A program made the position numbers and the translations under genes. The notes below the pieces were generated by a model. It made no database searches. It saw only the letters and a program-made list of their open reading frames with translations, and was not told where the DNA came from. Of a DNA stretch of 64,000 nt, positions 21,533-57,029 are shown piece after piece; within the stretch, counting starts at the first letter, position 1, and each line of letters begins with the position of its first letter. The DNA is from an uncultured Actinomycetes bacterium (GTDB lineage: Bacteria > Actinomycetota > UBA4738 > HRBIN12), in assembly GCA_963751665.1 (NCBI GenBank), contig CAVVVF010000001.1:18652-82651 (forward strand), read 5' to 3'.

Positions 21533-21617
21533 GCGGATGGTGCGCGTCGCATCTGGACTCATCGGGCGTTCCGGGCGAGCCGCGTGTCCAGCACTCCTCT
21601 GGCCTGCGGGGCTCTTC

Positions 21618-21659: not shown

Positions 21660-21754
21660 TGTTCTAGGGGCCACTCTCGCTACCCGGGGCGATTCGCGAA
21701 TCTGCCTCCTGAACTGCGCATTTTGTTGCTCAGCCCTTCTCGTTGTTTCTTCCC

Positions 21755-21788
21755 GTCTCCCGGTCGTTCGCGGGACGAATGCGGGACG
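21755..21788. repeat. arm-type repeat gtctcccggtcgttcgcgggacgaatgcgggacg next to att copy 1 (second copy at 47742-47780)
   Basis: Exact 33-34 bp match between the two island left ends, embedded in about 130 bp of roughly 65% similar flanks; contains internal direct repeat gcgggacgaa. Confidence 0.6.
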
Positions 21789-24387: not shown

Positions 24388-25369
24388 GGCGTCCTCCCTC
24401 CCGGCAACCCGAGCCTCGGGCCGGGCCGGAGTCGCCTTCGCGCTATCCCTATCTCCTGTTCACCTCGATTCATACCGGTGCACGGGTGGCTTATCAGGGC
24501 CAGAGGACCTGGAGTCGATGTGCCCATCGGGACCCGGCACGGGGCATCCCGGCCGCCCGCGCTGGCTTCGGCGCCTAGCTCAGCGGCTGGTTTCGCGCGA
24601 CGTCGGCGGGCGTTCTCTTGCGCCAGGGCAGCGCGCCACGACGTCGATGTCGATCGCGGAGCTGAGCAGAACTCTCACGAGGACAATCACACCGAGGGTG
24701 GTGGCACTCTCTAGCGTCGGCGCCACGCCTGTCGTGCGGACGATGTCGACGCCTGACGCCTGGAAACGCCGCGAAGCACCGACAGGACGTGGGTGCCGAA
24801 ACGAGGTCGCTCCCGCCGATCACCAGCACGAGGACGCCCTTGCGCTCTTCGCCATCGCTTTGGCCTTCAGATCGGATCTCTAGGGCCTGTGACGAACCCT
24901 TTATCATGCCCTCGATTCGATCCGCGTCTCGATGGATCCGGGGAAGCTCGGGCCAGCAAGACCCAGAAAGACCCAGCAATGACAAGGCGACCATCTCAAG
25001 GTGGAGTTTTCGGGGAACCCCGCCAACGCGGCGGCGGGCCTTAGCGTGGCTCCGGTGCTCGTCGGTATGACGGCTGCTGTGGGCGTCGCGATGCTGGTGC
25101 GAGCGGAGCGTCCCCAGGAGTGGCTGCATCTCCTGCCCGGGGTCGTCAAGTCGTCCACTCGCCCCGTTGGTTGGTCCGCAGACGAGAAGGGGTACCAACA
25201 TGCGCGGGCTGCTCGCGTCCTCGTGCCAACGGTGCCAGTCAAAGATTCGTGGACCCCGCAGGCCATGACAAGGCCGGGCAAGCACGCCGGCCACGACCTC
25301 CAACACCGTGGACAGGATCATGGGCAAGGTGCTCACTCCGGCGCGGCGGCAGATGAATACACTCCCGAC

Positions 25370-26578
25370 ATGGGCGGCGATGAGGGGCTGCGTGCCGTTG
25401 AGGCGGAGAACCGGCTGCTCCGCCGGGTGATCGAGACGATCACATCGAATCTCGACCTGGACACCTTGCTCGCCTCCTTGATCGACCTGGTTACCGAGGC
25501 GACCCGGGGCGACGCGTGCTTCCTATTCCTCTGGGACCCCGACGAGGAGCAGCTCGTGCTGCGCGCCGCCTCCCCCGAGTTCGAGGGAGCGGTGGGCTCT
25601 GTCCGCTTGCGTCTGGGCGAAGGCGTTTCCGGCTGGGTCGCCGAGAACCGGGAGGTCGTCGCGATCCCCGAGGACAAGTGGTCCGACCACCGGTACAAGT
25701 ACAACCCGGAGCTTGAGGGCGAACGGTTCACGTCGATGCTGTCGGTGCCGGTGGTCTCGAAGACGGGCGTGCTCCTCGGCGTCTTCAACGTCCACACGCA
25801 TGCCCGCCGGGACTTCAGCGAGCGGGACATCCGGTTCCTCCGGCTTACCGCCTCCCTTGTGGCTGAGTCCATCGAACACGCCCACCTGTTCGGAGCGCTC
25901 GCTGACAAAGAGTCGGCGCTCGAGGCGCTCGTGCGAACCACGATCGAGGCTCAGGAGGAGGAGCGTCGCCGCGTGGCCACCGAGATCCACGACGGCGTGA
26001 CGCAGCAGCTGGTTTCGATCTGGTACCGGCTCCAGGCGTGCGGGAGAACGCTCCGCGTGGATCCGGGCCGCGCCGAGCACGAGCTGGCGACGGCCCGTGA
26101 CCTGGTGGACGGTGCGCTCGAGGAGGCGCGATCCGCGATCTACGACCTGCGGCCCTCGCTCCTGGACGACTTGGGACTCTCCCCCAGCCTGCGAGCCCTC
26201 GCGCTCAGCCAGCTCGAAGGGGAGGCAAAGGTGGATCTGCAGATCGACGACGTGGTGCAGCTCCCGCCTCACCTTGAGGTGGCCCTGTATCGGATCGCCC
26301 AGGAGGCGTTGACCAACGTCCGCAAACACGCCCGGGCATCGCGCGTGAAGATTACCCTCCGAGAAGCCGACGGCTATCTTGAGCTCGAGATCGAGGACGA
26401 CGGCTGTGGGTTCGCGAGCCAGCCCTCGCAGTCGCAGCGCCCACCGACTTCGTTCGGTCTCACCGGTATGGCCGAGCGGGCGTCGCTGATCGGGGGCGAA
26501 CTCAGCCTGCGGAGCGCCCCCCGCCGCGGCACGGTCGTCACTGTTCGCGTCCCGACCCAGGCCGAGGCGCGCACGTGA
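25370..26578 (+). CDS. GAF-domain sensor histidine kinase (HisKA_3 + HATPase_c, NarL-partner type)
   Basis: GAF region then phospho-acceptor ATEIHDGVTQQLVS and ATPase motifs ALTNVRKHARA, DDGCGF, GLTGMAERA. Confidence 0.75.
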   Translation: MGGDEGLRAVEAENRLLRRVIETITSNLDLDTLLASLIDLVTEATRGDACFLFLWDPDEEQLVLRAASPEFEGAVGSVRLRLGEGVSGWVAENREVVAIPEDKWSDHRYKYNPELEGERFTSMLSVPVVSKTGVLLGVFNVHTHARRDFSERDIRFLRLTASLVAESIEHAHLFGALADKESALEALVRTTIEAQEEERRRVATEIHDGVTQQLVSIWYRLQACGRTLRVDPGRAEHELATARDLVDGALEEARSAIYDLRPSLLDDLGLSPSLRALALSQLEGEAKVDLQIDDVVQLPPHLEVALYRIAQEALTNVRKHARASRVKITLREADGYLELEIEDDGCGFASQPSQSQRPPTSFGLTGMAERASLIGGELSLRSAPRRGTVVTVRVPTQAEART

Positions 26579-27228
26579 ACGAGCCGATGCGCGTGGTGTT
26601 GGTGGATGACCACCGCGTGGTGCGCGAAGGCTTGAAGGCCATGCTCGAGGACGTCTCGGAGCTGGAAATCGTGGGGGAGGCGGAGGACGTCGCCGGTGCG
26701 CTCGTCGCCATCGAGAACGGCCGGCCCCACGTTGTACTTCTCGACGTTCGGCTCCAGCGATCGAGCGGCCTCGATGCGTGCCGAACCATCCGGGAACGCC
26801 ATCCCGAGGTGAACGTGGTCTTCCTCACTGTTTACGAGGACGAGCAGTACGTCTTCGAGGCCCTCCGCGCCGGCGGCCGCGGCTACATGTTGAAAAAGGC
26901 GCTCCCCGAGGACATCGTTCGGGTCCTGCAGGCGGTGCAGGGAGGCGATATCGTCATCGACCCGGCGCTCGGGGGCCAGATCGCCCTGCGAGCCGCGGCG
27001 CTCCGCGAGGGCAACGAATGGCCGGGCGCTCACCTCGGCCTCACGCAGCGCGAGGGGGAGGTCCTCGGCCATCTCGCCAAGGGACTGGACAACCGGGCAA
27101 TCGCCCACGCCCTGTACATCAGCGAGGGGACCGTGAAGTCCCACGTGAAGGGCATCTTTCGAAAGCTCGGCGCCAAGGACCGAGCTCAGGTCGTCTCGAT
27201 TGCGCTTCGCGAGGGCTTGGTTCGCTGA
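26575..27228 (+). CDS. response regulator, NarL/FixJ (LuxR-type HTH) family
   Basis: Receiver VVLVDDH...LLDVRL and C-terminal LTQREGEVLGHLAKGLDNRAIAHALYISEGTVKSHV; start overlaps kinase stop. Confidence 0.8.
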   Translation: MNEPMRVVLVDDHRVVREGLKAMLEDVSELEIVGEAEDVAGALVAIENGRPHVVLLDVRLQRSSGLDACRTIRERHPEVNVVFLTVYEDEQYVFEALRAGGRGYMLKKALPEDIVRVLQAVQGGDIVIDPALGGQIALRAAALREGNEWPGAHLGLTQREGEVLGHLAKGLDNRAIAHALYISEGTVKSHVKGIFRKLGAKDRAQVVSIALREGLVR

Positions 27229-27270
27229 GCGACTCGTGACTCTTGGGCGGGTCACGGGTACAGACCGACG

Positions 27271-28194
27271 CTAGCGCCCGATCGCGGGGGGCCGCGCGGC
27301 CAGCACCGCGCGCCTCGCGGCCGCGCCGGAGGCAAAGCGCAGGAACGCCTGGGCCGGAGCCGGCAAGAACCCGTCCTCCAGGTATTGCAGGAACCATCGT
27401 CGCCGAAGCGGCGTTCCCCGCGCCCGCAGGCGTGCCAGGGTCCCGGCTGCGATCTCCAAGGCCACCGCCTGAGCCGAGATGAGGGTCACGCCGAGCCCGA
27501 CTGCAGCTGCTTGTTTCACGGCTCCATTGCTGCCCAGGTTCAGCACACGCCGGGGCTCGATCTCGTGCCGGGCAAGGAACTCCTCCGTCGTAGAGCGCGT
27601 CCCAGAGCCGGGCTCGCGAAGGAGCCATGTGTCGTTGAGCCGTCGCGGGTCGATGCCCGAGCGACCGGCTAGCGGATGGTCTGGAGCCGACACGATGACC
27701 AGGTCGTTCGCGAGGAACCCCCGGCCGTCGACGGGCCCGTCTGCCGGCGGACGTCCGCCGACGGCCAGGTCCGCCTCCCGGGCCAGCAAGCGCTCCAGAA
27801 CCAAAGCCCGGTTCCCCACCTCCAGCACCGGGTCCACCTCCGGGTACTGTTCCTGAAAGGCCTTGAGGATGGGGGGGACAACGTACTCGCCGGCGGTCGT
27901 GACCGCGGCGAGCCGCAGTCGGCCCCGGCCAGGGTGCGCGGCCGCGACGGCGGAGTCCCTACCCTGTTCCAGCAACGCCAGGCACTGCGCCGCGAAGACG
28001 GCCAGGGCCTCGCCCGAAGGGGTCGGGCGCACGCCCTGCCGGTCCCGGACCACTAATCGGACGCCCACGTCGCGCTCGAGCGCGGCCAGGCTCGCCGAGA
28101 CCGCCGGCTGCGTCACATACAGCTCGGCTGCGGCGCCAGTCACCGAGCGGTGTCGCACCACCGCGAGGAATGCACGCAACTGAGCGAGGGTCAT
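27271..28194 (-). CDS. cbbR: LysR-family transcriptional regulator, divergent from RuBisCO genes (CbbR-like)
   Basis: [43 protein letters not shown]; position divergent to cbbL is the canonical CbbR arrangement. Confidence 0.7.
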
Positions 28195-28285
28195 AAAGAA
28201 AGCTTATATGGGAACACGAAAGATTCAATTGTATCTGATCTCGCAAGGCCCTAGGGTGGAATGTGATCCAGAAGGGGAGGAACCG
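28195..28285. promoter_or_regulatory. cbbR-cbbL divergent intergenic control region (locally AT-rich, putative LysR T-N11-A boxes, RBS GAAGGGGAGGA)
   Basis: aaagaaagcttatatgggaacacgaaagattcaattgtatctgatctcgcaa is markedly AT-rich for this genome and lies between divergent regulator and operon. Confidence 0.3.
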
Positions 28286-29728
28286 ATGGCCCTCACCAAC
28301 CACACGAAGTTGTTCGACGCGGGAGTGAAGCTCTACAAGGACATGGGCTACTTCGAGCCCGGCTACGCGCCGAAGGAGACTGACGTCCTCGCGGCGTTCC
28401 GTGTCACGCCTCAGGAGGACGTCCCCCCCGAGGAGGCCGCTGCGGCCGTCGCCGCCGAGTCCTCGACCGGCACCTGGACCTCGGTCTGGACCGACCGCCT
28501 CACCGACCTGGAGCGCTACCGGGGCCGGTGCTACCGGATCGACCCGGTCCCGGGCGAGCCGAGCCAGTACATCGCCTACGTCGCCTATGACCTCGACCTG
28601 TTCGAGGAGGGTTCGATCGCGAACATGGCCTCATCGATCGTCGGGAACGTGTTCGGGTTCAAGGCCCTCCGGGCCCTCCGCCTGGAGGACCTTCGGGTAC
28701 CGATCGCCTACCTGAAGACGTTCCAGGGACCGCCCCACGGGATCCGGGTGGAGCGCGACAAACTGAATAAGTACGGCCGGCCCCTGCTTGGCTGCACGAT
28801 CAAGCCGAAGCTCGGGCTCTCCGCTCGCACCTATGGGCTCGCGGTATACGAATGCCTGCGCGGAGGTCTCGACTTCACGAAGGACGACGAGAACATCAAC
28901 TCCCAGCCGTTCATGCGCTGGCGGGACCGGTACGAGTTCGTCATGGAGGCGGTTCGCAAAGCCGAGGACGAGACCGGGGAGCGCAAGGGCCACTACCTGA
29001 ACGTCACCGCCCCAGGATTCGAAGAGATGATCGAGAGGGCCGAGCTCGCGAAGGAGCTCGGCGCGCCGATCATCATGGTCGATTACCTCACCGTCGGGTT
29101 CACCGCGTTCACGTCGCTGTCGCGGTGGTGCCGACGGAACGGGGTGCTGCTGCATTGCCACCGTGCCATGCATGCGGTAATCGACCGCCAGCGCAACCAC
29201 GGCATCCACTGGCGGGTGCTCGCGAAGTGGTGCAGGATGATCGGGGCAGATCACCTGCACAACGGGACCGTCGTCGGGAAGCTCGAGGGCGACCGGGCCG
29301 CGACGATGGCCATCAACGACCTCTTGCGGGAAGACTTCGTCGCGCGGGATCGGTCGCGCGGGATCTACTTCGACCAGCCCTGGGCGTCGTTGCCGGGCCT
29401 GTTCCCGGTGGCTTCGGGCGGGATCCACGTCGGTCACATGCCGGACCTCGTTGCCATCTTCGGCGACGACGCAGTGTTCCAGTTCGGGGGTGGGACGCTT
29501 GGCCACCCTTGGGGCAGCGCAGCCGGAGCCACCGCGAATCGGGTCGCGCTCGAGGCCGTGATCCAGGCCCGAAACGAAGGCCGGGAGATCGCTGCGGAGG
29601 GCGCGGACGTCCTACGGAAGGCGGCGGCGCACTCTCCCGAGCTGCGCGCGGCCCTCGAGACGTGGCAGGATGTCACCTTCGAGTTCGATGCGGTCGACGC
29701 CCTCGACCAAGCACAGGTGACGTCGTGA
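28286..29728 (+). CDS. cbbL: ribulose-1,5-bisphosphate carboxylase/oxygenase large subunit, form I
   Basis: Signature [42 protein letters not shown], followed by small subunit gene. Confidence 0.9.
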
Positions 29729-30042
29729 CGACGAGCACTCGCCGCCTGGAAACCTTCTCCTACCTGCCGCCTCTCACCGACGAGCAGATCACCGCGCAGA
29801 CCGGCTCGATCCTGGAGCGCGGGTTGATCCCCGCGATCGAGCACACGACCGACCCTGGACCGCGAAACACCTACTGGAGCCTGTGGAAGCTCCCGCTGTT
29901 CGACGCGCGAACGCCGGAGGCGGTTCTGGCCGAGGTCGAGGCCTGCGCGCGAGCCAACCCCGACGCATACGTCCGGCTGAGTGGCTACGACCCGAAGCGC
30001 CAGGGGCAGGTCGCGAGCTTCCTGCTCCGCCGCCCCAGTTGA
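29725..30042 (+). CDS. cbbS: RuBisCO small subunit
   Basis: [14 protein letters not shown]...[11 protein letters not shown]; GTG start overlaps cbbL stop. Confidence 0.85.
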
Positions 30043-30353
30043 GAGCCCACAGGGCGTTCTAGGTTCGGAACGCTGGATCGCTGGCGAGTCCGGGCCCAGG
30101 CTTTCCCCATCGTGCTCCCGCAGCTCGCTGGGAACCTTCCCTCCCTGGGGGGAGGCCGGTCTCCCCCTCCCTCCCCCCACTCCGGGTGATAACGGGCGCG
30201 GGGACCTCGCCTACGGTAATGATCGAGCAGCGGCTATGGATCTCCCTCGGGGAGGCTCGGGCTTCCGAACGAACCACCCGACACCCACGCGACGACGTGT
30301 GGGGACGATCCATGGCGACAGCATGCGGGACAGAGAGAAGAGGTGAGGCGGCC

Positions 30354-31268
30354 GTGAGACCGGTCATGCTGGCGATCGTCGGAGACAGCGCCGCCGGCAA
30401 GACGACCTTCACTCAAGGGGTCGTGGGGCTGCTCGGGGAGGGGCGCGTCGCCGTGATGTGTACCGACGACTATCACCGCTACGATCGTGTCCAGCGCCGC
30501 GAGCTGAACATCACACCCCTCGACCCTGACGGCAACTACATGGACATCATGGCCCAGCATCTTCGGTTGCTCGCCGCCGGGGAGCCGATCTTGAAGCCCG
30601 TCTACGACCACAGCCATGGCAACTTCGCGCCTCCCGAGTACGTGGTCGCCCGGCAGTTCATGGTCGTTGAAGGCCTTCTCGGCCTGACGACCAAGCCCAT
30701 GCGTGACTGCTACGCGGTGAGGGTCTACCTCGATCCGCCCGAGGACATGCGGCATCGGTGGAAGATCCAGCGCGACTGCGCGAAGCGCGGCTACACCCCA
30801 GATCAGGTGCTCGAGGAGCTGGAAAGGCGCGAGCCGGACTCGGCCGTCTTCATCCGGCCCCAGCGCGGGAGCGCGGACATCGTCGTGCGCTTCGAGCCTC
30901 CGAACGGCTTCGTCGACAGCGCGCGCCTGTCGATGCGCATGGTGTTGCGCCCGACGATCTCTCATCGAGATCTCACCGAACTCGCCGAGAAGGCCGTTTC
31001 GGACGGATGCGAGTCGATCCGGCTGGAGCTCGGGCGCGACGAGGGACACCCGGCCGACCTCCTCTACGTATCCGCGGACATCTCCGCCGAGGAGACCGCG
31101 CACCTGGAATCGCTGCTCTGGGAGCGCATGGATTTCGATCATCATCTCGAGCGCGAGGATATCGGCACCTTCGTCGAGGGCAACCGCCGCCGCCACTCGG
31201 ACTGCCTCGCTATCGCGCAGCTGTTCATCACCTACCACCTCCTGAACGCCGCGGCAGGCGGGCAGTGA
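30354..31268 (+). CDS. prk: phosphoribulokinase
   Basis: P-loop IVGDSAAGKTT and PRK-specific DDYHRYDR motif. Confidence 0.8.
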   Translation: MRPVMLAIVGDSAAGKTTFTQGVVGLLGEGRVAVMCTDDYHRYDRVQRRELNITPLDPDGNYMDIMAQHLRLLAAGEPILKPVYDHSHGNFAPPEYVVARQFMVVEGLLGLTTKPMRDCYAVRVYLDPPEDMRHRWKIQRDCAKRGYTPDQVLEELERREPDSAVFIRPQRGSADIVVRFEPPNGFVDSARLSMRMVLRPTISHRDLTELAEKAVSDGCESIRLELGRDEGHPADLLYVSADISAEETAHLESLLWERMDFDHHLEREDIGTFVEGNRRRHSDCLAIAQLFITYHLLNAAAGGQ

Positions 31269-31293
31269 TGGCCCGGGTGCGGGTGGCTGCTCG

Positions 31294-32688
31294 GTGACGA
31301 CCCCGGCCGGGTCGATCCTCCTCGCCGGCGGGGCGATGTCGAGCCTCGACGACTACATCGCCGCGGGCGGAGGGAGGGCGCTCGTCGCGGCGCTCGAACG
31401 CTCGCCGCAGGCGGTGATCGATGAGGTGAAACGCTCGGGCCTTCGGGGCCGCGGGGGAGGGGGGTTCGCTACAGGCGTGAAGTGGGAGTCCGTCCGGTCC
31501 GACCCATGCCCCACCAAGTTCGTGATCTGCAACGCGGCCGAAGGGGAGCCCGGCACGTTCAAGGACCGCTGGCTCCTGCGGCACAACCCCTACCAGGTGC
31601 TGGAAGGCATCGCCATCGCCACCCGCGCGGTGGGGGCCGACCGCGCGTTCATCGCGGTCAAGCGCGCGTTCGAGCGGGAGATCCGCACGCTTCGTCGAGC
31701 CATCGCCGAGATGAGAGGGAGCGACATGCTCGGCCCCGTTCCCATCGAGATCATCCTTGGGCCCGACGAGTACCTCTTCGGAGAAGAGAAGGCGCTCCTC
31801 GAGGTGATCGAGGGGAACGACCCCCTCCCGCGGATCCTCCCTCCCTACCAGGTTGGGCTGTTCGCCAGACGGGGATCTAGCAACCCCACAGCCGTCAACA
31901 ACGTCGAGACCCTTGCCAACGTGCCTCACATCATCACCAAGGGCTCGGAGTGGTTCCGGTCGTTCGGAACCGAGACCTCGCCTGGGACCGGGGTGTTCAC
32001 CCTGTGCGGGGACGTGCGCCGGCCCGGCATCTATGAGCTCCCCCTCGGCCTGCCCCTACGGACCCTCCTGTACGACATCGGCGGAGGCTCGCCCGAGGGC
32101 AGAGCGCTAAAGGCCGTCTTCCCCGGTGCATCCAACGCAGTCCTCTCGGCCGAGCAGTTCGACACCCCGATGGACTTCGACTCGATGAGGGCGGTGGGGT
32201 CCGGGCTGGGATCGGCGGGATTCGTGGCGTACGACGAGTCGGCGTGCATCGTGAGGGCCACCCTCGCGTACTCTCGGTTCCTCTACGTCGAGTCGTGCGC
32301 GCAGTGCCCGGCCTGCAAGCAGGGCTCCGAGGAGATCACCGACTGCCTGGAGAGGATGGAGCGAGGCGAGGGCTCGGAGTCAGACGTAGAGTCCGCACTC
32401 GCCAGGTGCCTCGCGGTGACGGGTGGCCGGCGGTGCGCCCTTCCCACGGGTGAGTCGCTTCTCGTCCAGAGCGCCATCCACGCGTTCGAGGTCGAGTTCC
32501 GGGAGCACCTCGGCCGGCCCTGCCCCAGGCCGCGCGACCTTCCTCTCCCCAAGCTCGTGGACTTCGACGAGGAGGGCGGGCGGTTCGTTTACGACGACCG
32601 GTATCGGCTGAAGCGGCCGGACTGGACGTTCGAATCCGGGCGGAAAGGTGCTCGGTCGATGCCGGCGCGAGAGGAAGCACCAGCGTGA
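31294..32688 (+). CDS. NuoF-like NAD(H)-binding FMN/Fe-S flavoprotein (Complex I 51 kDa family), stand-alone
   Basis: GLRGRGGGGFATGVKW FMN/NADH motif, C-terminal 4Fe-4S cysteine cluster ESCAQCPACKQG. Confidence 0.75.
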   Translation: MTTPAGSILLAGGAMSSLDDYIAAGGGRALVAALERSPQAVIDEVKRSGLRGRGGGGFATGVKWESVRSDPCPTKFVICNAAEGEPGTFKDRWLLRHNPYQVLEGIAIATRAVGADRAFIAVKRAFEREIRTLRRAIAEMRGSDMLGPVPIEIILGPDEYLFGEEKALLEVIEGNDPLPRILPPYQVGLFARRGSSNPTAVNNVETLANVPHIITKGSEWFRSFGTETSPGTGVFTLCGDVRRPGIYELPLGLPLRTLLYDIGGGSPEGRALKAVFPGASNAVLSAEQFDTPMDFDSMRAVGSGLGSAGFVAYDESACIVRATLAYSRFLYVESCAQCPACKQGSEEITDCLERMERGEGSESDVESALARCLAVTGGRRCALPTGESLLVQSAIHAFEVEFREHLGRPCPRPRDLPLPKLVDFDEEGGRFVYDDRYRLKRPDWTFESGRKGARSMPAREEAPA

Positions 32689-33356
32689 AGGTGGGAGACC
32701 TCGCCACAGCCCCGGTCGTTTCCGTCCGCCCGGAGCAGTCCGTGCGCCAAGCCGCGCGAGTGATGATGGAACACGGAACCGGCTCGACGGTCGTCCTCGA
32801 TGGGGGAGCGCTGGTCGGGATCCTGACCGAGCGAGATCTCCTGCGGGCCGCTGCGACGGGAACGGATCTGGACGGGACGAGGGTCGAGCAGTTCATGTCC
32901 CCGCACGTGAAGACGATCGGTCCCGACTGGGAGGTCTACGAGGCAACGGCGGAGATGGCGGCCCAGCACATCCGCCACCTGGTCGTATGTGAGAACGCGC
33001 AGGTGGTCGGCGTCTTGTCGGTACGGGACGTGCTCCTGGCGGGCCAGCGAGTGGAGCTCACGGCCGGGAGCTGGGCCGTGCTGCGGGACCCGTTGACCTT
33101 GACCATCAGGGAACGCCGACGCCTCCAGCGGTGCCTACTCATGCTCCGCGGGACCGACCCCGCCGAGTTCGAGCTCGCGGGCTTGATCGGCCTCCTGGTG
33201 GGGAGCTGGTCGTTTGAGGTGGCCCTTCCGGCAGAGTCCGAGAGCCTACGGTCGATACCCGCCGCAGACTATGAGTTGCTCAGGGCGGCGGTGTTGGCCG
33301 AGCTCCCCGACCTTCAGCGCTCCGTGCACCCCTCACCCGGGTGGCGGCGGAGGTAA
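32685..33356 (+). CDS. CBS domain pair protein
   Basis: Two CBS-like units (…VVLDGGALVGILTERDLL… / …HLVVCENAQVVGVLSVRDVL…); overlaps upstream stop. Confidence 0.65.
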   Translation: MKVGDLATAPVVSVRPEQSVRQAARVMMEHGTGSTVVLDGGALVGILTERDLLRAAATGTDLDGTRVEQFMSPHVKTIGPDWEVYEATAEMAAQHIRHLVVCENAQVVGVLSVRDVLLAGQRVELTAGSWAVLRDPLTLTIRERRRLQRCLLMLRGTDPAEFELAGLIGLLVGSWSFEVALPAESESLRSIPAADYELLRAAVLAELPDLQRSVHPSPGWRRR

Positions 33357-33394
33357 GAGACAGCGTGAAAGATCGACGAGCCCTGGAAGTGCAC

Positions 33395-34105
33395 GTGAGA
33401 GAGCCCGCGATCGTCGCGTCGGTCCTTGGCGCCGATTACGCCAACCTGGGGCGGGAGGTGGCGGAGCTCGAGGCCGCCGGGGTCGACCGCATCCAGTGGG
33501 ACGTGATGGACGGGCGCTTCGTCCCGAACCTGACGTTCGGTTCCGACGTCGTGGCCGCTTGCCGCCGCCTCTCGGAGCTTCCGTTCGAGGCCCACCTCAT
33601 GGTTGAGGAGCCCGATCGATGGCTCGAACCCTTCGCCGCCGCCGGCTGTGACACGTTGATCGTCCACCAGGAGGCGTGCCGGCACCTGCACCGGACGCTC
33701 ACGCAGATTCGGGCGCTAGACGTGCTCGCGGGCGTCGCGCTCAACCCGGCGACCCCGATCGAGTGCGTGCGTCACGTGCTCGACCAGGTCGACGTCTTGC
33801 TCGTTATGACCGTCAACCCCGGCTTCGGAGGGCAGTCGTACATCGCGGCGATGGAGGAAAAGGTGGCCGAGGCCCGGCACCTGATCGACCGGTCGCGGTT
33901 CGCTACGACGATCGAGGTCGACGGGGGGATCTCCGCTGCGACCGTTGCGGGGGCGTGGAAGGCCGGGGCGGAGCTCCTCGTAGCCGGATCGGCCATCCTC
34001 GGCCATGCCGAGGGGAAGCAGGCCGCGGTGGCCGAGCTCCGGCGATGCCTGGAGCTCTCACAGAGACCGGTCCCAACCCGCGGACCGTTGGAGTCCCAAC
34101 GATGA
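33395..34105 (+). CDS. rpe: ribulose-phosphate 3-epimerase
   Basis: [35 protein letters not shown] motifs; start codon choice (GTG 33389/33395) uncertain. Confidence 0.8.
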
Positions 34106-36163
34106 CCCTCTCTGGCGCCGCCCGCCCAACGGCTCACGCCGGCGACCTCGATGACCTCTGCATCAACACGATCCGTGCCACAGCCGTGGACGCGATCGAG
34201 AGGGCGAACTCCGGTCACCCAGGGACTCCCATGGGGGCCGCCCCCATGGCGTATGTGTTGTGGACCCGCTTCCTGCGGCACAACCCTCGAAACCCTCGTT
34301 GGTCTGACCGCGACCGGTTCGTGCTTTCGGCCGGGCACGCCTCCATGCTCTTGTACGCGCTGCTGCACCTGACCGGCTACGACGTTGCGCTCGAGGAACT
34401 CCAGCGGTTCCGCCAGTGGGGATCGAGGACCCCGGGCCATCCCGAGTACGGACTCACACCGGGAGTGGAGACGACGACCGGGCCCCTCGGCCAGGGGTTC
34501 GGGAACGCCGTGGGGATGACGATCGGCGAGCGCATGCTCGCCGATCGCTTCAACCGGCCCGGCCTCGACATAGTCGACCATTACACCTACGCCATCTGCT
34601 CCGACGGGGACATGATGGAGGGGGTGGCCTCGGAAGCCGCATCGTTGGCCGGCCACCTGGGCCTTGGCAAGCTGATCTGCCTCTACGACGACAACGACAT
34701 CTCGATCGACGGCCACACCGACCTATCGTTCAGCGAGGACGTGGGGAGCAGGTTCGATGCTTACCGCTGGCACGTCCGGCACGTGTTAGACGGCAACGAC
34801 CTTGCAGTCCTGGAGGCGGCGCTCGCCGAAGCGCGGGAGGAAACTGAACGTCCCTCCCTGATCGTGGTGAGGACCCACATCGGATTTGGTGCTCCCACGA
34901 AGCAGGACACGGCGGAGGCGCATGGGGCTCCCCTCGGAGCCGACGAGGTGAGGGCGTGGAAGGAGCGGATCGGCTGGCCCGACGGCGAATTCTTCATCCC
35001 CGAGATGGCCCAGTGCCGGTTCCGCGAGGCCCTGGAGCGCGGCGCCGAGCTGGAGCGGGGCTGGCGTCGGCTGTTCGAGCGCTGGGCGGCGGCGGAGCCC
35101 GACCTCGCTGCGGAGTGGGACCGAGTGATGGCAGGCCGCTTGCCTCTCGGTTGGGAGCAAGGGTTTCCGGATTTCCGAGATCAGACCGCGTTGTCCACCC
35201 GGAAGGCTTCCGGGAAGGTCCTGGGGGCCTTGGCCACGAGACTCCCCGAGCTGGTCGGGGGCTCGGCCGACCTGACCGAGTCGACCAACGTCGCGTTGCC
35301 GGGCGAGACGTCGTTCTGCCGTGAGCGCACCGGTCGCTACATCCACTTCGGGGTGCGAGAGCACGGCATGGGAGCCATCCTGAACGGACTGTCGCTCCAT
35401 GGTGGGCTTCGACCGTTCGGGGGGACCTTCCTGATCTTCTCGGACTACATGCGCCCGTCGATGCGCCTGGCCGCACTGATGGAGCAGCCGGTCGTCTACG
35501 TCCTCACCCATGACTCGATCGGTCTGGGGGAGGACGGCCCCACCCACGAACCTGTGGAGCACCTCCCGTCGCTGCGGGCCATGCCCGGGCTCGTCGTGAT
35601 TCGGCCGGCAGATGCGGCCGAGACCGCCGAGGCCTGGAAGGTGGCACTCGAGCGTCGGGACGGTCCGACCGCGCTGATCCTCTCGAGGCAGGACCTTCCC
35701 GTGCTCGATCGAGATCGGCTCGCTCCCGCCGGTCTCCTGGCTCGCGGAGCGTACGTGCTAGCCGACGCTCACGGCCAGCCGGAGGACCTCATCCTATTAG
35801 CCTCCGGGTCGGAGGTGCCCGTCGCCCTGGCCACGGCAGACCTCTTGCAGTCCGAACACGGGCTGTCCGTGCGGGTGGTGAGTATGCCCTCGTGGGAGCT
35901 GTTCGAGCAACAGGACGAAGCGTACCGTGGGAAGGTCCTCCCCCCCGACATCCCCGTCCGGTCTGGCTGTGGAGGCCGCAACTCCCCTCGGATGGACCCG
36001 GTGGGTGGGCAACGCGGGAGCGGTGGTGGGGGTCGATCGCTTCGGGGCCTCCGCCCCCGGTTCGGTCGTCCTGGAGCAGTACGGCTTCACCGCAGAGAAC
36101 GTGGCGGCCCGCGCCTTGGAGCTCCTGCTCACGAGCGGGTTGTCCTCGACCTTGGGGAGGTGA
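34102..36163 (+). CDS. tkt: transketolase (apparent frameshift near 35950 before last about 70 aa)
   Basis: SGHPGTPMG thiamine-PP motif, full TK domains; C-terminal [16 protein letters not shown]...[16 protein letters not shown] only in a second frame. Confidence 0.75.
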
Positions 36164-36165
36164 GG

Positions 36166-37440
36166 GTGGTCCCTTCCATCCGTCCCTACCGACCGGACGA
36201 CCTCGGCCGGATCGTCGAACTGTGGTCCGGGGCGGGCGAGCCTCCGGGCTTGGTTCACCAGCTCCACGAGGTCCTGAGCCTCGTCAACCACGAGAGCGCC
36301 ATCGTCCTCGTGGTTGAGAGGGAGGGCGAGATCGTCGGGGCGGGCTTCGGTACCGTGTCTGGTGCTCTCGGTTGGATCCATGATCTCGCCGTTACCGAGC
36401 GGCCCGAGGCCGATGTCGCCCTTGACCGCCTCATCGACCAGATGGAATCTGGGATGGCCGATCGGGGCGCGCACGTGATCGATGCCCTCGTCGGAATCGA
36501 AGGACGCCTGCACCGAGGCCTTCGGCAGCGGGGCTACGAGATGGTCCGCGACGCCGTCTGCGTTCGGCGGGATATCTCCAGCACCGTCTCTGCCCCCTCG
36601 GTCCTGGCGGAGCTCGGAGGCGTCACGATCGACCCCGGCCTGTGGGATCGCCTCAAAGGGATGGAAGGGCCCAAGGACATCATCGAACGGCGGGTCATCC
36701 TTCCCCTTTCCGAGCCGGAACTCGCCGAGCGTCACAGCGTCGAACGACCGAAGGCGATCGTCCTGTTCGGGCCACCTGGGACCGGCAAGACGACGTTCGC
36801 CAAGGGGATCGCGTCCCGGCTCGGGTGGCCCTTCGTAGAGATCGAGCCGAGCGGGCTCGTCGACGAGGGTATCGAGCACGAGGGGAGGCTCCTCGCCCGA
36901 GCCTTCGAGCGGCTCCTGGAGCTGCCCTCGGCGGTGGTGTTCGTCGACGAGGTGGAGGACCTCGCCTCGATCCGTCACAACGAGCGCAGGGTGAGCCCCA
37001 GCGTGACGAACGAGTTCCTGAAGCAGATCCCCAGATTCCGGACGGTCCCGCATCACCTATTGGTGTGCGCTACGAACTGGGTCGGAACGCTGGATCCAGC
37101 GTTCCTCCGCCCGGGCCGGTTCGACTACGTCTTGCCCGTCGGGCCGCCGGACGCGGTCGCCCGGGCCGCCATCTGGCGTCGTTACGTAGCGGAGATCAGC
37201 GATCAGGACATTGACGTCGACGTTCTGGTCGAGGCCACCAGGTACTTCACGCCTGCAGACATCGAGTTCGCTGCCCGCAAGGCGGCCCAATCGGCGTTCG
37301 AGCGGGAGGTCTTCCGAGGGTCCGGGGCCAAGGCCGGCACCGATGACTTCCTGAATGCGATCGGGCAGATGAAGCCCACCCTCTCGCAGGAGATGATCGA
37401 GGTCTTCGAGGGGGACGTCGAGCGGTTCGCCCGGTACTGA
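36166..37440 (+). CDS. GNAT acetyltransferase domain fused to AAA+ ATPase (FtsH/CDC48-like core), within cbb operon
   Basis: N-terminal GNAT fold ([19 protein letters not shown]...WIHDLAVTE), then Walker [10 protein letters not shown], Walker [10 protein letters not shown], second region of homology [19 protein letters not shown]. Confidence 0.65.
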
Positions 37441-37500
37441 ACGTCATCCGCGATCGGCGACGCCGACCGAAACCTGACGCCAGAAAGAGGGAGGAAGGCG

Positions 37501-38523
37501 ATGGGCGTGGAGGAACTGGAGCGAACGGCCCGGGCCCTGGTTGCCCCGGGCAAGGGCATCCTGGCAGCGGACGAGAGCAGCGGCACGATCAAGAAGCGGT
37601 TCGACTCGATCGGCGTGGAGTCCACCGAGGAGAACCGCCGCGCCTACCGAGAGATGTTGTTCACCACGCCGGGGATGGAGGAGTTCATCAGCGGGGTGAT
37701 CATGTTCGACGAGACGCTCCGCCAATCGACGAGCGGCGGGATCGCCTTCGCCAATGTCCTTGAGGCCGTCGGTGTCATCCCGGGCATCAAGGTCGATACA
37801 GGAGCGAGGCCTCTGGCCGGGTTCCCGGGTGAGACGGTGACCGAGGGACTCGATGGCTTGCGGGAACGCCTGGCCGAGTACCGCGAGATGGGCGCAGGGT
37901 TCACGAAGTGGCGAGCCGTCATGACCATCGGAGACGGCATCCCGACCCAGTCCTGCGTCGACGCGAACGCCGAAGCCCTCGCGCGGTTCGCCGCCCTGTC
38001 CCAGGAGGCGGGGCTGGTCCCGATCGTGGAGCCGGAAACCTTGATGGACGGCGACCACACGATCGACCGTCACTACGACGCCACACGCCGGACACTCGAA
38101 GCACTGTTCGACCGGCTGTTCGCGCACCGGGTCGAACTGGCCGGGACCCTGCTCAAGACCAACATGGTCCTGTCGGGGAAATCCGCGCCTGAACAGGCGG
38201 GGGTCGAAGAGGTTGCGGGGTGGACGCTCCGCCTCCTCCGTGGATGCGTCCCACCGGCCATTCCCGGGATCGTCTTCCTCTCCGGAGGGCAGACCGACGA
38301 GGCCTCCACCGCGCACCTCTCCGAGATGAACAGGATCGGTGGAGTGCCGTGGGAGCTGTCGTTCTCGTATGGGCGTGCGCTGCAGGCGCCGGCCCTAAAG
38401 GCCTGGGGCGGAAAGGCGGAGAACCTGGAGACAGGACAGCGCGCCCTCTACCAGCGGGCGCGGCTCAACGGCGTGGCGAGGAGCGGGAACTACAGGCCGG
38501 ACATGGAACACGCTCCAGCCTGA
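37501..38523 (+). CDS. fba: fructose-bisphosphate aldolase, class I
   Basis: GKGILAADESSGTIKKRF and Schiff-base lysine context typical of class I FBA. Confidence 0.85.
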   Translation: MGVEELERTARALVAPGKGILAADESSGTIKKRFDSIGVESTEENRRAYREMLFTTPGMEEFISGVIMFDETLRQSTSGGIAFANVLEAVGVIPGIKVDTGARPLAGFPGETVTEGLDGLRERLAEYREMGAGFTKWRAVMTIGDGIPTQSCVDANAEALARFAALSQEAGLVPIVEPETLMDGDHTIDRHYDATRRTLEALFDRLFAHRVELAGTLLKTNMVLSGKSAPEQAGVEEVAGWTLRLLRGCVPPAIPGIVFLSGGQTDEASTAHLSEMNRIGGVPWELSFSYGRALQAPALKAWGGKAENLETGQRALYQRARLNGVARSGNYRPDMEHAPA

Positions 38524-38593
38524 CCCGTAAACCATGCGCCGTGTTGGCGCCGCTGGCGGCCAAGCGATGGGACCGTCGGGTACGAAAACTCGA

Positions 38594-39783
38594 TCATGCC
38601 GCCCTCATGTACTCGTGGACGAGCCCACCGAGGAGATCTCGCCGTTCGATGTCGGGCACGCCGTCGGCCTCTTCGACGGGAGCGAGACTCTCGGGTACCT
38701 GCAGCTCCAGTCCTCGATGCGGGCGTCGCCGGTTGTAGTGCTGCGCATAGATCCGAATGATGCGATCGAGATGCCGGGGGCCGAGGATCAGCAGCCAGTC
38801 CAGGCACTCTGCGCGAAGCGTCTCTATCCAGCGCTCGGCGAAGGCATTGGCGTTCGGCGCCCTGATCGGCGTGCAGGTCACCCGGATCCCTTCTGATACG
38901 AAGACATCATCGAAGGAGCGGGAGAACTTGGCGTCTCGGTCGCGGATGAGAAAGCCGATCTGCGTGCCCTCCTCGGCGGGCCCATCGCAAGGTTCCTCGC
39001 CTGCTGGGTGACGAAGGAAGAGTCCGGGTTGGTCGTTGAGACCGTGACGTGCACGCGCCGTGTCCCGATCTCGATGAAGAACAGGACATAGAGCGTCTTG
39101 AGAAACGCCGTCTCGACCGTGAAGAAATCGCAAGCCTGGACGCCCGATGCCTGAGCCTTCAGGAACTGGCGCCACGTCGGGCCCCGGCGGGGGGCCGGAC
39201 CGACGCCGGAGCGGCGAAGAAGCATCGCGACGCTCGTCGCGGACACGCGGATCCCCAGCTTTCGCAGCTCGCCTTTGATCCTCATGCATCCCCACCGGGG
39301 GTTCTCTCTTGCCATCTGAAGGATCAGCATGCAGACCTCTGGATCGATCGCGGGGCGCCCGGGCGGGCGATGCGGCCTCGTCCACTTTGCCGCGACGAGT
39401 GACCGGTGCCAGCGCAGAAGCGTCTCGGGACGAACGAGGAACGCACCCCAGCGCTCTTTGGGAAGGATCCGGCTTGCTGCAGCGAGCAGCGCACGGTCCC
39501 CGTGCCGGTAGACCGGGCGCTTGACCTGTCGGCGTAGGACCTGGAGTTGGTGGCGAAGGACAAAGATCTCAATTGCGGCATCGTCGGAGCGATGTTTCGG
39601 CGCGACAAGGGTGAGGAGCCGACGAAGCATCATATAGAGGAGTGAAGCAAGCATGGCGGCGATACTGTCATGCCGGGCGATGCTCAACCACCGACCACTC
39701 CGGCGGGGCTGCCTGATCGAGTTCTTGTACCCCACGGGTTCGTAACGGAACCGACATCGGCCTCCAGGAGGCAGCTGCGCCAC
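38594..39783 (-). mobile_element. rve/DDE-type IS transposase (IS481-like), single frameshift near 38980
   Basis: N-terminal HTH and start of integrase core (CDFFTVETAFLKTLYVLFFIEIGTRRVHV) in one frame; rest of core (IRDRDAKF...HYNRRRPHRGL) in another. Confidence 0.6.
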
Positions 39784-39952: not shown

Positions 39953-40939
39953 TCAGCGGCAGGGAGTCCAGGGGGTGTCGAACAGGTCGAAGGTCTTTCG
40001 AATGGCGTTGCGGTTCGCCGAGTTGGCCTGAGGGCAGAACTTGGATGTCGAGAGCTTGTATTCCACTTGGAACACGGCCTTGCCTGCGGTGGCGAAGTAG
40101 GTCGTGTAGTTCCCGCACTCGTTGTACTGCTCGCACTGCTCGTTGATCGCGTAGTCGAAATACGGCGCCAGGTCGGGGACCTGCTCCACGTCGTTCTTCA
40201 GGGCGACCGTCAGTCCATTGCTGTGGGCGAGGTTCGCGAGCGCTGTATTGAACAGCAGCTGCGTGTCTGCGCTGATCGTGAGCCCTGTTCGGTTCGACCA
40301 CGCGTCGACCACGTCCATCTCGACGCCGTCAAAACGGTTCGCCGCGCAGCGGTCGAGGCGGTTCGCGATCTGGCCGAGAATGAAGTCCCGCTGCCCCTGG
40401 TCGTTGTTGATGTTCAGCCAGAACTCGTTTCGGAACCCGGAGACTGGCCTGCCAAACAGGCACCCGTCGCAGTTGGTGTTGAACGCCACGTACTGGGGAT
40501 AGTCGGGCCGAAAGCTCTCGGCCGTGCCCGCGTCGATGTAGCAGATCGCCTTGGCTCCATTCGCATGGATCGCACTCACCGCGGCGCCGTTCTCCTGCGT
40601 GATCGTTCCGCCCGTGCACGCGCCGTCGATCTGGAAGTCGATGTCGAAGACCGCGGGGCTCACCGCCGCCGCACCCGTGAACGGCGTACCAGTGATGTTC
40701 ACATTGATCCCGCCGGTCGAGGTGTACAGACAGTTGCCGGACTTGTCCCGGGCAGCCTGCAGCTGGTACTGCCACCGGGAGTTCGTGGCCGGAGTCCAGC
40801 AGGCGGCGGTGGCCGTGTTGCAGGCCACCGGTGCCGCGCACCCAGCCGTCGGGCAGCTCGCCTGCGCGGGCGGCGCCAGGACCGCGAGCCCTCCGACGCC
40901 CATGAACGTGGTGAGAAACAAGAAGGTTGCGACCGGCAT
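39953..40939 (-). CDS. secreted TIM-barrel glycoside hydrolase, GH114-like (endo-alpha-1,4-polygalactosaminidase-like)
   Basis: Signal peptide, Cys-rich N-terminal segment, then AICYIDAGTAE...FDGVEMDVVDAW... pattern resembling PF03537; assignment tentative. Confidence 0.45.
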   Translation of the reverse strand: MPVATFLFLTTFMGVGGLAVLAPPAQASCPTAGCAAPVACNTATAACWTPATNSRWQYQLQAARDKSGNCLYTSTGGINVNITGTPFTGAAAVSPAVFDIDFQIDGACTGGTITQENGAAVSAIHANGAKAICYIDAGTAESFRPDYPQYVAFNTNCDGCLFGRPVSGFRNEFWLNINNDQGQRDFILGQIANRLDRCAANRFDGVEMDVVDAWSNRTGLTISADTQLLFNTALANLAHSNGLTVALKNDVEQVPDLAPYFDYAINEQCEQYNECGNYTTYFATAGKAVFQVEYKLSTSKFCPQANSANRNAIRKTFDLFDTPWTPCR

Positions 40940-41336
40940 GGCCTATTCTCTGGTTTGCTTCGGTGCATCCACTCGACAGTAATCGAAGGATGGCCCGTGT
41001 TGGAGGGCCATGTCCTGCGCCCCATGTAACTCACGCCATTCCGGAGGGCTCCACGATTCTCAACGACTCGTTCCCTTCCAGTCCTCCGAACCCGTCGAGG
41101 AAGACGGCCGCCCGCCGCATCCGCGCACCCAGGCCTCCGGTCGACATCGAGGCTGCGTTCAAGGATCAAAGCCCCTTCTAAGGCATCGCCTGACCAGCTG
41201 CTCGGCCTGGCGTCGGGGTTGGAACGCTGGGGGTGCTTATTGATCAACGTCCGCGTCTCCTGCCCGCGATCCGTTGATACCCTCAGGGCCCGCCTGGGGG
41301 AGGGGCGGCTTCGGTCGCCCTGAGCGGGCGTCGGTC

Positions 41337-41912
41337 TCATCTGGCTCCGACATTGGCGGGAGCGTCCGGCTCCTCCGCGCGCTCGTGATCCGGCTCCGCC
41401 TTCGGTCCAAAGAGCCTCGACCTGTACCACTCGGTGGCCCGGCGCGCCGCATCCTCATAGGCCATCCGCAGTTCGTCTTCTGGATACGCAGACCCGTCTG
41501 TCTCGCCAGGGGCGTCCTCGAGGTCCATGTTCGACTGGCCAGAGAACAGGGCCCCCTCTCTCACCACCAAGACCTTGGATCGGATTTTGCCCTCCACCCG
41601 GCAACCCTGGGCCAGCTCGGCCTTCGTCCGTGCGGTGATGTTGCCCTTGAGCGTCCCCCCCATTACCACGTTTTGGGCCTGGATGTCGGCCTCCACGTGG
41701 CTGTGGGACGAGAGGATCACGTCGCCTCGGGCGGCGATCTTCCCCTTGGCCTGGCCGTCTATGCGAATTGATTCGGCCGATACCAGCGTCCCCTCCAGCT
41801 GAGCCCCACGACCCACCACGGTCATCTCGGGACCGAGGGCCTCTTTGATTCCAAGTTCTCTCGGCTGGACCGCACCACGGCCGCCCTCCCGATGTCGTCG
41901 CCTCAACATCAT
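41337..41912 (-). CDS. bactofilin family cytoskeletal protein
   Basis: Repetitive beta-helical DUF583 core GRGAQLEGTLVSAESIRIDGQAKGKIAARGDVILSSHSHVEADIQAQNVVMGGTLKGNITA. Confidence 0.65.
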   Translation of the reverse strand: MMLRRRHREGGRGAVQPRELGIKEALGPEMTVVGRGAQLEGTLVSAESIRIDGQAKGKIAARGDVILSSHSHVEADIQAQNVVMGGTLKGNITARTKAELAQGCRVEGKIRSKVLVVREGALFSGQSNMDLEDAPGETDGSAYPEDELRMAYEDAARRATEWYRSRLFGPKAEPDHERAEEPDAPANVGAR

Positions 41913-42701: not shown

Positions 42702-43496
42702 TCACGCCTCCCTCCCTCCGGGACCGCGACCTTTCAGCCCGCCCGCTCGCTTGTGTGCTCGTACCAGCAGCGTCAATCCGGTATCCGGCCGCCGCGCCAC
42801 GCGCTCCGCCAGATCCGAGATCGGCTTTCCCATCACCCTCAGCAGGACGTAGCCGAGGATCTTCGCCGGCAGTAGCCGCGGAGGCAGATCGTCGAGGCGC
42901 CAAGAGAGACGTACGAGCCGGAGCGCGAGCGGGGTCGTGAGGATGTAGCGGGTCCGCTCCACCTCGAAGCCGGCGCGGCCGAGCTTGTCTCGGACCACCT
43001 CGGGCGTGTACAGCGTGTAGGCCGCGTACCGGGTTCGGTGGGCGGCTCGCTCGGAATCGGTGATCTCCGGGTTCGAGAGGCTGTCCGCAGAGATCGCGAT
43101 GACTCCCCCCGGACGCAGCACTCGGTGCAGCTCGGCGAGGACCACTTCGTCGTTAGGGAAGTGTTCGATCGCACAGAAGGACACAACCTTGTCGAAGGAC
43201 TGGTCGTCGAACCCGAGATCCGCTGCGTCCATCCGGTGGAACACCGGGAGCGATGAACCCTTCCTCGCGGTCGCGATCGCCAGGCGTTCGAGGTTCACAT
43301 CAATTCCCACGACGCTCGCGCCGACCCTGGCGATCGCGGCGGCATTGGACCCATCGCCGCAGCCCACGTCGAGGATCCGCTCCCCAGGCGCGGCCTCCAG
43401 CCACCGGATGAGGGTCGCGCACTCCTCGACCCGCCGAAGGTTGAGCCGATTGAGGAGGGAATAGCTGGACGCCAAGAGCCCGCGATTTCGCCTCAC
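42702..43496 (-). CDS. class I SAM-dependent methyltransferase
   Basis: Motif I ILDVGCGDG, post-I and motif II (Methyltransf_11/25-like); intact 264 aa. Confidence 0.75.
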   Translation of the reverse strand: MRRNRGLLASSYSLLNRLNLRRVEECATLIRWLEAAPGERILDVGCGDGSNAAAIARVGASVVGIDVNLERLAIATARKGSSLPVFHRMDAADLGFDDQSFDKVVSFCAIEHFPNDEVVLAELHRVLRPGGVIAISADSLSNPEITDSERAAHRTRYAAYTLYTPEVVRDKLGRAGFEVERTRYILTTPLALRLVRLSWRLDDLPPRLLPAKILGYVLLRVMGKPISDLAERVARRPDTGLTLLVRAHKRAGGLKGRGPGGREA

Positions 43497-44308
43497 CCCT
43501 GATTCCTAGTCCGCCGGCGAAAGCCGGGCAAATCCGACCTGCGCGGGACTCACCCGCCGACGCGGGCGAGACATTCTCAGGTCGCGAGGGCATGATCCCA
43601 ATAGTTTGCCCAGTCTCTGAGGGGCTTGCGATAATGCTTGAGCATTGACGGGCCTGCGTCTCCGGGTGCACGTGCTGTCTCCCGTCGGAGACTGTTGCCT
43701 CCGCGCCGAAGGAGCACGCATGAGGCGGTGCCTTCTGCTCGAACACTTCGAGCCCAGGACGGGGAGATTCGAGGGTCGGGGCACGCGAGACTGTGGCCGG
43801 AGGAGCGAGCGCGGATAGGAGCGGGGCCGCTCAATCCCGCGAGCGAAGCCTCGCCTGGCCTTCCAGGACCACAACTCAGCGTTGGGAGGTCGTCGGCTCG
43901 GCGCGTTCGCCCGGCCCTCTCCATGCGCCGCAGTTGCACTCGCTGTAGAGGCAACGACGGAAGCCGTCGTCGCTGTGAATGAATTCGGAGTGCGCGCAGC
44001 CGGCGCAGAAGACGCGACGCGAATCAACGGCGTGCCGGAAGATCGAATCCGCATCGGCCGGAAATCTCATGCCTCGCCCTCGAAACCGGGTTCCTGCCTT
44101 CACTGTAGGGATATCGGGCGAATCTCGACATCGGCCAAAAGTCCGCATTTCGGTTTCCTATTCGCCACCGTTTGCAGGCCCGCCGCGACGTCATGCCGTC
44201 AGCCCAGGAGGTCCCTGTGTTGTACCAGTCTCCGTTCGCGGTTCTAGAGTTCTTCGAAGAGGTCACGGACCTCCTCGGACGAGCAGACGCAGGGAAGGAG
44301 CAGGGGAC

Positions 44309-57027: not shown

Positions 57028-57029
57028 CG

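Follow-up and report, generated by a model that had tools for sequence, protein, structure and literature searches.

Many proteobacterial plasmids carry Calvin-Benson-Bassham cycle genes. Such genes can also reside on a genomic island, as do the cbb genes of Cupriavidus metallidurans CH34 on CMGI-3, an integrative and conjugative element of the Tn4371 family (PMC2864759). In this work we analyze a 64-kb stretch of DNA with about 68% GC from an uncultured actinobacterium (contig CAVVVF010000001.1 of assembly GCA_963751665.1, positions 18,652 to 82,651), hereafter the window, whose closest matches are metagenome contigs and metagenome-assembled genomes (MAGs) of Actinomycetes. We consider it likely that the CbbR-type regulated Calvin-cycle cluster of this window (27271-38523) is the cargo of a now-immobile integrative element of about 26 kb (21.6-47.6 kb), one of two lying in tandem in the 3′ end of a tRNA-Glu(CTC) gene. 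The locus is a clear, not unprecedented, new example of Calvin-cycle genes as accessory cargo, here in an uncultured soil actinobacterium.

The resemblance to CMGI-3 lies in Calvin-cycle genes and cbbR riding as accessory cargo on an integrated element, in insertion sequences (ISs) that flank or abut the cassette and in the possibility of losing autotrophy (PMC2864759). However, CMGI-3 is a 97-kb conjugative-type proteobacterial island with cbbQ/cbbO and hydrogenase genes (PMC2864759), whereas the element described here is a 26-kb tRNA-Glu element of an actinobacterium, with a truncated integrase, no conjugation genes and a RuBisCO of another clade. An actinobacterial accessory replicon with related content is the mobilizable 437-kb plasmid of Mycobacterium intracellulare (L104; NZ_CP012886.2, 318600-339991), which combines cbbLS, class I fba, rpe, tkt and prk with a GAF kinase/regulator pair. 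It differs in its CbbX-linked CbbL, which is 63% identical to the one studied here and groups with red-type form IC, in its larger small subunit and in the adjoining hyp hydrogenase maturation genes, and it lacks both the NuoF-like/CBS gene pair and the GNAT-AAA+ gene of the window. The form IE systems of soil Actinobacteriota, Chloroflexota and Dormibacterota (PMC9561532; PMC13454268) likewise pair a form I enzyme with a small subunit in uncultured soil Actinomycetes, but the window has no high-affinity hydrogenase or carbon monoxide dehydrogenase genes. Finally, the activases CbbX, Rca and CbbQ/O (PMC5437159, PMC4660213) offer a parallel for an AAA+ ATPase encoded in a RuBisCO operon and kept by purifying selection, whereas the AAA+ protein found here belongs to a mostly stand-alone family of other affinities.

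The evidence for integration starts from the tRNA-Glu(CTC) gene, the only tRNA detected in the window by ARAGORN and Rfam. Its 3′ 42 nt, which extend from the anticodon loop as far as the acceptor end, are found as three exact copies in direct orientation (at 21618, 47606 and 54851), where none would be expected by chance. The features that delimit and mark the proposed elements are as follows:

54849-54924, minus strand: intact tRNA-Glu(CTC), the proposed integration target (ARAGORN; Rfam, 65.4 bits)
21618-21659, minus strand: displaced copy 1 of the tRNA-Glu 3′ 42 nt, proposed distal att scar and left border of element B (exact match to 54851-54892)
47606-47647, minus strand: displaced copy 2 of the same 42 nt, proposed border of elements B and A (exact match)
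21660-21790, no strand: arm beside copy 1, homologous to the arm of copy 2 at 47648-47777 (about 75-80% identity)
38573-39737, minus strand: IS481-like insertion sequence with 32-nt terminal inverted repeats, 50 nt past fba
45399-46046, plus strand: truncated tyrosine recombinase that keeps only its C-terminal catalytic half (Pfam Phage_integrase, positions 67-165 of the 172 in the profile)
47648-54850, no strand: element A, with a degraded cyclase/Trans_reg_C/BTAD/Pkinase/nSTAND1/WD40 gene and a 266-aa open reading frame (ORF) (Pfam on fragments)

Judged from the sequence, the three repeats form the classic pattern expected when two related elements have entered a tRNA gene in tandem. The homology beside copies 1 and 2 extends over 130-170 nt and includes a 35-nt identical block. 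Element B (21.66-47.6 kb, about 26 kb) contains the operon, the IS and the recombinase fragment, which lies 1.6 kb from copy 2, near the tRNA-proximal end; because the integrase is only a fragment, element B is no longer mobile. Element A measures about 7 kb, and consists of a repeatedly frameshifted giant gene and the 266-aa ORF, which has no family match. The IS481-like element is polymorphic: its transposase is intact at 360 aa in the related metagenome contigs L003 and L004, whereas that of L002 is split and that of the window has two frameshifts. A prophage origin is unsupported and was set aside, the att arm not being found in viral contigs. The placement of the operon inside a tRNA-associated island, which the earlier note on this DNA had put forward from its letters, is thereby given firmer outlines: exact repeats of the tRNA gene bracket the operon, and an integrase remnant and an IS lie between them.

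Under the model that we favor, a tyrosine integrase would have recombined the chromosomal tRNA-Glu gene with an attP site that bore the 3′ half of the tRNA, so that the old 3′ half came to lie at the element's far end. Another, related element would have integrated in the same way, and later the integrase would have been truncated and the element have become fixed. Once resident, the cargo would be switched on by the LysR regulator together with a GAF sensor kinase and a NarL-type regulator, acting on cbbLS-prk-rpe-tkt-fba from the divergent intergenic region. An L8S8 RuBisCO and phosphoribulokinase (PRK) would carry out the two steps specific to the cycle, with Rpe, Tkt and Fba reinforcing the regeneration of ribulose bisphosphate, and FBPase, GAPDH, PGK, TPI and RPI would come from housekeeping genes.

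The cluster itself, with its regulators, comprises the following genes and sites:

25265-26578, plus strand: GAF-HisKA_3 sensor histidine kinase (Pfam; start taken from the 437-aa P0251)
26575-27228, plus strand: NarL/LuxR-type response regulator (Pfam Response_reg and GerE)
27271-28194, minus strand: cbbR, LysR family (Pfam HTH_1 and LysR_substrate)
28195-28285, no strand: divergent cbbR-cbbL control region, 91 nt, AT-rich (read from the sequence)
28286-29728, plus strand: cbbL, form I RuBisCO large subunit (Pfam, 443 bits; PDB comparison; tree)
29725-30042, plus strand: cbbS, short small subunit of 105 aa (Pfam RuBisCO_small)
30354-31268, plus strand: prk, phosphoribulokinase (Pfam PRK; NCBIfam NF005655, a PRK model of cyanobacterial type with a cut-off of 236 bits, at 367 bits)
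31294-32688, plus strand: solitary NuoF-like FMN/NADH/4Fe-4S flavoprotein (Pfam Complex1_51K, SLBB and NADH_4Fe-4S)
32685-33356, plus strand: CBS-pair protein (Pfam CBS, twice)
33341-34105, plus strand: rpe, ribulose-phosphate 3-epimerase (Pfam; TIGR01163 above its cut-off)
34102-36164, plus strand: tkt, transketolase, with a +1 frameshift at 35960 (three-frame translations; alignment to L002 and L085)
36166-37440, plus strand: GNAT-fold and classical-clade AAA+ ATPase (Pfam AAA; NCBIfam GNAT; AlphaFold2 (AF2) and Foldseek; family alignment)
37501-38523, plus strand: fba, class I fructose-bisphosphate aldolase (Pfam Glycolytic; NF033379, 498 bits)

Pfam and NCBIfam scans recovered every gene that the earlier note had named, each where it had been placed, including a cbbR divergent from a plus-strand cluster headed by cbbL, and all four of the motifs it quoted are present in the translations. 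Its "overlapping ten-gene plus-strand operon" requires some correction, since several genes do overlap, by 4-16 nt, while the plus-strand genes listed number nine. The term "complete" does not hold. RuBisCO, PRK, RPE, TKT and FBA are the only cycle enzymes encoded in 27271-38523 according to Pfam, and FBPase/SBPase, GAPDH, PGK, TPI and RPI were found neither in the cluster nor among any of the window genes scanned. The RuBisCO catalytic motifs of cbbL are intact in translation, and an in-frame ATG at 28208 lies upstream of its start at 28286. Between cbbS and prk, which share a strand, there is a gap of 311 nt that folds no better than its shuffles (z = -0.5); the Rfam scan of the window yielded the tRNA as its only RNA element, and the one terminator-like site lies inside tkt.

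All genes of the operon, including the three unusual ones (NuoF-like, CBS and GNAT-AAA+), are under purifying selection, with ratios of nonsynonymous to synonymous divergence (dN/dS) of 0.08-0.26 between the window and the related contig L085. Synonymous divergence (dS) is uneven along the operon. Against L002 it amounts to 0.17 in prk, 0.07 in nuoF and 0.01-0.04 in the other operon genes; against L085 it reaches 1.25 in fba and 0.3-0.6 elsewhere. Since it forms a mosaic, it suggests that recombination may have taken place within the operon.

Comparison with relatives shows the cluster in varied surroundings. In L085 the kinase, regulator, cbbR and nine-gene operon all recur with 83-88% identity, except that fba is only 64% identical and is directly followed by different DNA. 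In L089, whose CbbL is 85% identical, the order is kinase, regulator, DeoC-type aldolase, prk, NuoF-like, CBS, rpe, tkt, cbbR and cbbLS, without the AAA+ gene and followed by two serine recombinases. L103, a 3.1-Mb contig, shares exactly the segment from kinase to prk (25369-31270) between unrelated flanks. The presence of the operon in relatives, a check that the earlier note had proposed, can hence be answered for its core, which is found in other contexts in L103, L089 and L085; as the relatives carry this core in differing contexts, the kinase/regulator/cbbR/cbbLS/prk module behaves as flexible DNA. On the left side of the proposed element, L091 shares the flank (15177-21542) at 87% identity and diverges ten bases past the stop of the flanking gene, beyond which it holds a protease gene and an IS fragment, with no tRNA within 1.65 kb. 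L002, L003 and L004 (L002-4), 98% identical to the window, span prk through the methyltransferase gene of element B; they lack 40283-41284 and 43531-43885, and their GH114 gene is cut to 127 aa. L001 retains a decayed 170-nt 3′ end of tkt followed by a 91%-identical AAA+ gene (9828-11278), at a locus that adjoins the genes for EF-Tu, L33, SecE, NusG, L11 and L1. This remnant implies, on sequence grounds, a footprint left by the loss or relocation of a former cbb operon.

A number of observations weigh against acquisition, and several of them favor the alternative that survives best, namely that this actinobacterial lineage had the cbb cluster from its ancestors by vertical descent, with the tRNA fragments as scars of unrelated integrations and excisions between which the cluster came to lie by later rearrangement. 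The composition of the operon is indistinguishable from that of the adjacent left flank in GC (0.678 and 0.679), in GC at third codon positions (0.856 and 0.870; 0.94 in the right flank) and in tetranucleotide usage. The nearest CbbL relatives are all Actinomycetes MAGs, and for this reason any transfer would probably have taken place within the phylum. The core from kinase and regulator through cbbR and cbbLS to prk is common to several lineages, at nucleotide identities of 82-88% (L103 and L085) and 74-80% (L089), and the identity of the L103/L085 core resembles the 87% flank divergence of L091. An empty tRNA-Glu attB joined to the left flank was not found, a metagenome scan with the left-flank gene having returned only short contigs. 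Furthermore, L002-4 part from the window at 44277, a point within the proposed element, past which L002 continues with other genes and a tRNA-Met; the integrase persists only as the fragment in element B, and element A has none. Exact-protein look-ups with fba and with the gene at 61402-62391 gave no match and no same-strain contig for the right junction, and host marker genes are absent from the window.

Vertical descent with local rearrangement nevertheless appears rather unlikely to us. Under the standard integration model, all DNA from a displaced tRNA 3′ fragment up to the intact tRNA belongs to the element, the neighbors of the module differ in every relative examined, the flank synteny with L091 stops at the border, and the element contains both an integrase remnant and an IS. 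Horizontal acquisition is not yet proven: the claim that the operon is acquired DNA outside the core genome gains from the module's other contexts in relatives and is tempered by its typical composition and by the lack of an empty site. In sum, the first reading of this DNA was largely right and overstated completeness.

A second alternative is that the operon of this genome is a decaying, non-functional relic. It draws mainly on tkt, where a single extra G at 35960 (site 35955-35965) is seen relative to L085 and to the 98%-identical L002-4. According to three-frame translations, the last 68 codons (67 residues and the stop) are read in the +1 frame. Intact tkt encodes 685 aa in L002 and 684 aa in L085; as written here, about 67 terminal residues are lost and the frame continues into the AAA+ gene, forming a 1112-codon ORF. 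The tkt copy of this genome may therefore be impaired by the frameshift, which also counts against a working cargo as we picture it. The adjoining IS and the many disrupted genes of the window (the IS transposase, the STAND gene, two phosphoesterases, an SBP and a GFO/IDH gene) point the same way. Set against this, the remaining operon genes are intact with low dN/dS, only the end of Tkt is missing and a housekeeping tkt is probably encoded elsewhere. Because all other coding indels between the window and close contigs are multiples of three, the tkt lesion is a mutation of recent date or else an isolated error of assembly; the latter is equally possible, most single-base indels being extra bases in the window. 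On balance we judge a relic improbable.

The weakest alternative, an assembly chimera in which a cbb contig was joined to the tRNA locus through the repeated 42-nt sequence, could appeal to the apparently uncultured source, to close matches that are all metagenome contigs or MAGs and to the capacity of repeats to mis-join contigs, but it is hardly credible, given that L002-4 bridge prk to the methyltransferase gene, that the arms of copies 1 and 2, at 75-83%, are distinct enough to be told apart and that L101, an independent JGI metagenome contig, runs from the left flank through copy 1 (with one mismatch) into cbbL at 99.4% identity, by which the island structure is no assembly artefact.

With integration into tRNA-Glu as the favored account, the nature of the cargo can be considered, beginning with its RuBisCO. 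Among solved structures, CbbL matches best a reconstructed form I ancestor (7qsw, 874 bits), followed by form IB (about 805 bits), IA (about 771), IC (655) and ID (640). A bootstrapped neighbor-joining tree, built without an outgroup and without a curated reference or form IE set, groups it with L085, P0124 and L103 (100% support), which L089 and an Actinomycetes MAG then join (89%). This clade is nested in a grade made up of sequences from Chloroflexota, Dormibacterota, Rokubacteria and Limnochorda that lies between the red-type clade and the IA/IB crowns; among the nearest relatives, Dormibacterota and Chloroflexota MAGs stand at 76-80% identity. The phylogeny that the earlier note had recommended thus places CbbL outside both the IA/IB crowns and the red-type clade, and an assignment to IA, IB or IC was rejected. 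We provisionally assign CbbL to a basal, mostly actinobacterial and Chloroflexota grade, which would be form IE in a broad, paraphyletic sense, a label that is provisional because the tree lacks an outgroup and a curated reference set. This agrees with the use of form IE for a paraphyletic, mainly actinobacterial grade (PMC13454268). Elsewhere form IE is described as related to IC/ID (PMC9561532), a sense that CbbL does not fit: its scores are higher for IB and IA than for IC and ID. In a scan of genome contigs with CbbL, cyanobacterial form IB predominated and no close genome emerged. Two short contigs, L063 (labeled Streptomyces brasiliensis) and L083 (labeled Clostridia), carry an rbcL that clusters with banana chloroplast rbcL, which is probably plant contamination of those assemblies.

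Control of the cluster appears to center on the 91-nt spacer between cbbR and cbbL, in which we recognize, at about 28196-28208, a putative LysR-type site of the form TAA-N7-TTA (T-N11-A), together with a strong ribosome-binding site, GGGGAGGAA; no sigma-70 promoter consensus was found in this region. The top NCBIfam match of cbbR is CbbR, at 219 bits and hence under the cut-off of 450. The GAF-HisKA_3 kinase is always cbb-linked in relatives (L085, L089, L103 and L104). Its identification as a DosS/DosT-like heme sensor was dropped, since it has a single GAF domain that most resembles PtsP/NifA-type GAFs.

Three further genes set the operon apart. The NuoF-like protein retains the FMN, NADH and CxxCxxC...C motifs and has a dN/dS of 0.25. 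An identity as NuoF, the 51-kDa subunit of complex I, was discarded, as it scores 355.8 bits against the nuoF equivalog TIGR01959, below the cut-off of 558.65, and its neighbors are prk and the CBS gene, with neither nuoE nor nuoG beside it. The CBS gene is always paired with the NuoF-like gene (L002-4, L085 and L089), that is, in both cluster arrangements. The two are conserved accessories that probably form a module for redox/adenylate sensing or NAD(H) coupling.

The third gene encodes a protein with a single AAA+ module of the classical clade, nearest to VAT/Cdc48, PAN/Rpt and Vps4 in sequence and fold, whose top PDB and NCBIfam matches are VAT/Cdc48, PAN, CdvC and FtsH. Walker and arginine-finger motifs are intact, and in the family alignment pore loop 1 lacks an aromatic residue. 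The N-terminal domain adopts a GNAT topology in the AF2 model (pLDDT 77) and matches the NCBIfam GNAT model over residues 4-112 (E=3e-8), the Q/RxxGxG/A motif not being conserved. Neither CbbX, Rca nor MoxR is among its best 60 matches, and a CbbX-like or other known activase lineage was rejected in view of its closest relatives. The gene is linked to RuBisCO genes only in the window, L002-4 and L085, is absent from the L089 and L103 clusters and stands alone in L087, L088 and L090. Because its family is large and its members mostly stand alone, the operon copy would be a lineage-specific recruit from a widespread family. In L087 a distance of about 900 nt separates the stand-alone homologue (87%) from a DUF2461 gene (8458-9083); the DUF2461 counterpart in the window (4905-5531) is 31 kb upstream of the operon AAA+ gene.

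It is conceivable, if distinctly doubtful, that the NuoF-like/CBS pair links the cycle to the adenylate state and to NAD(H) redox and that, jointly, the GNAT-AAA+ protein acts on RuBisCO or another cycle enzyme. The latter would then represent a fourth, unrelated kind of activase or remodeller, serving a basal form I enzyme without CbbX, Rca or CbbQO, and such parts would make up an undescribed actinobacterial version of Calvin-cycle control.

Besides PD40 proteins, the remaining cargo of element B includes the following genes:

22249-24387, minus strand: multicopper oxidase, the first cargo gene of element B (Pfam Cu-oxidase_2/3)
39953-40939, minus strand: GH114 (Pfam)
41337-41912, minus strand: bactofilin (Pfam)
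42702-43496, minus strand: methyltransferase (Pfam)
44309-45367, plus strand: GDSL lipase (Pfam)

Disrupted genes are abundant in the window, and either pseudogenes or indel errors could be the cause. At 55515-58489 lies a tandem pair of phosphoesterase (PF04185) paralogues with about 80% identity, both of them broken up over different reading frames, and other broken genes are the truncated SBP (12225), the truncated GFO/IDH gene (9295-10215) and a broken DUF2461 gene (about 4905-5531).

The spread of form I RuBisCOs of this kind between lineages has mostly been inferred from trees. The locus analyzed here offers physical evidence for one route of such spread, in the form of att scars and an integrase remnant at a tRNA gene, and its integration scars are unusually legible. 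A portable core of sensor kinase, regulator, cbbR, cbbLS and prk occurs in differing contexts among relatives, and signs of loss are apparent both in the tkt remnant of one relative and in the tkt frameshift of the window. The form I RuBisCOs of soil Actinomycetota and their neighbors are reported to dominate over other form I types in surveyed metagenomes of soil and cold desert (10.64898/2026.05.21.726994, PMC9561532), and the NuoF-like/CBS pair and the operon-embedded AAA+ gene are candidates for an as yet unstudied regulation of these enzymes.

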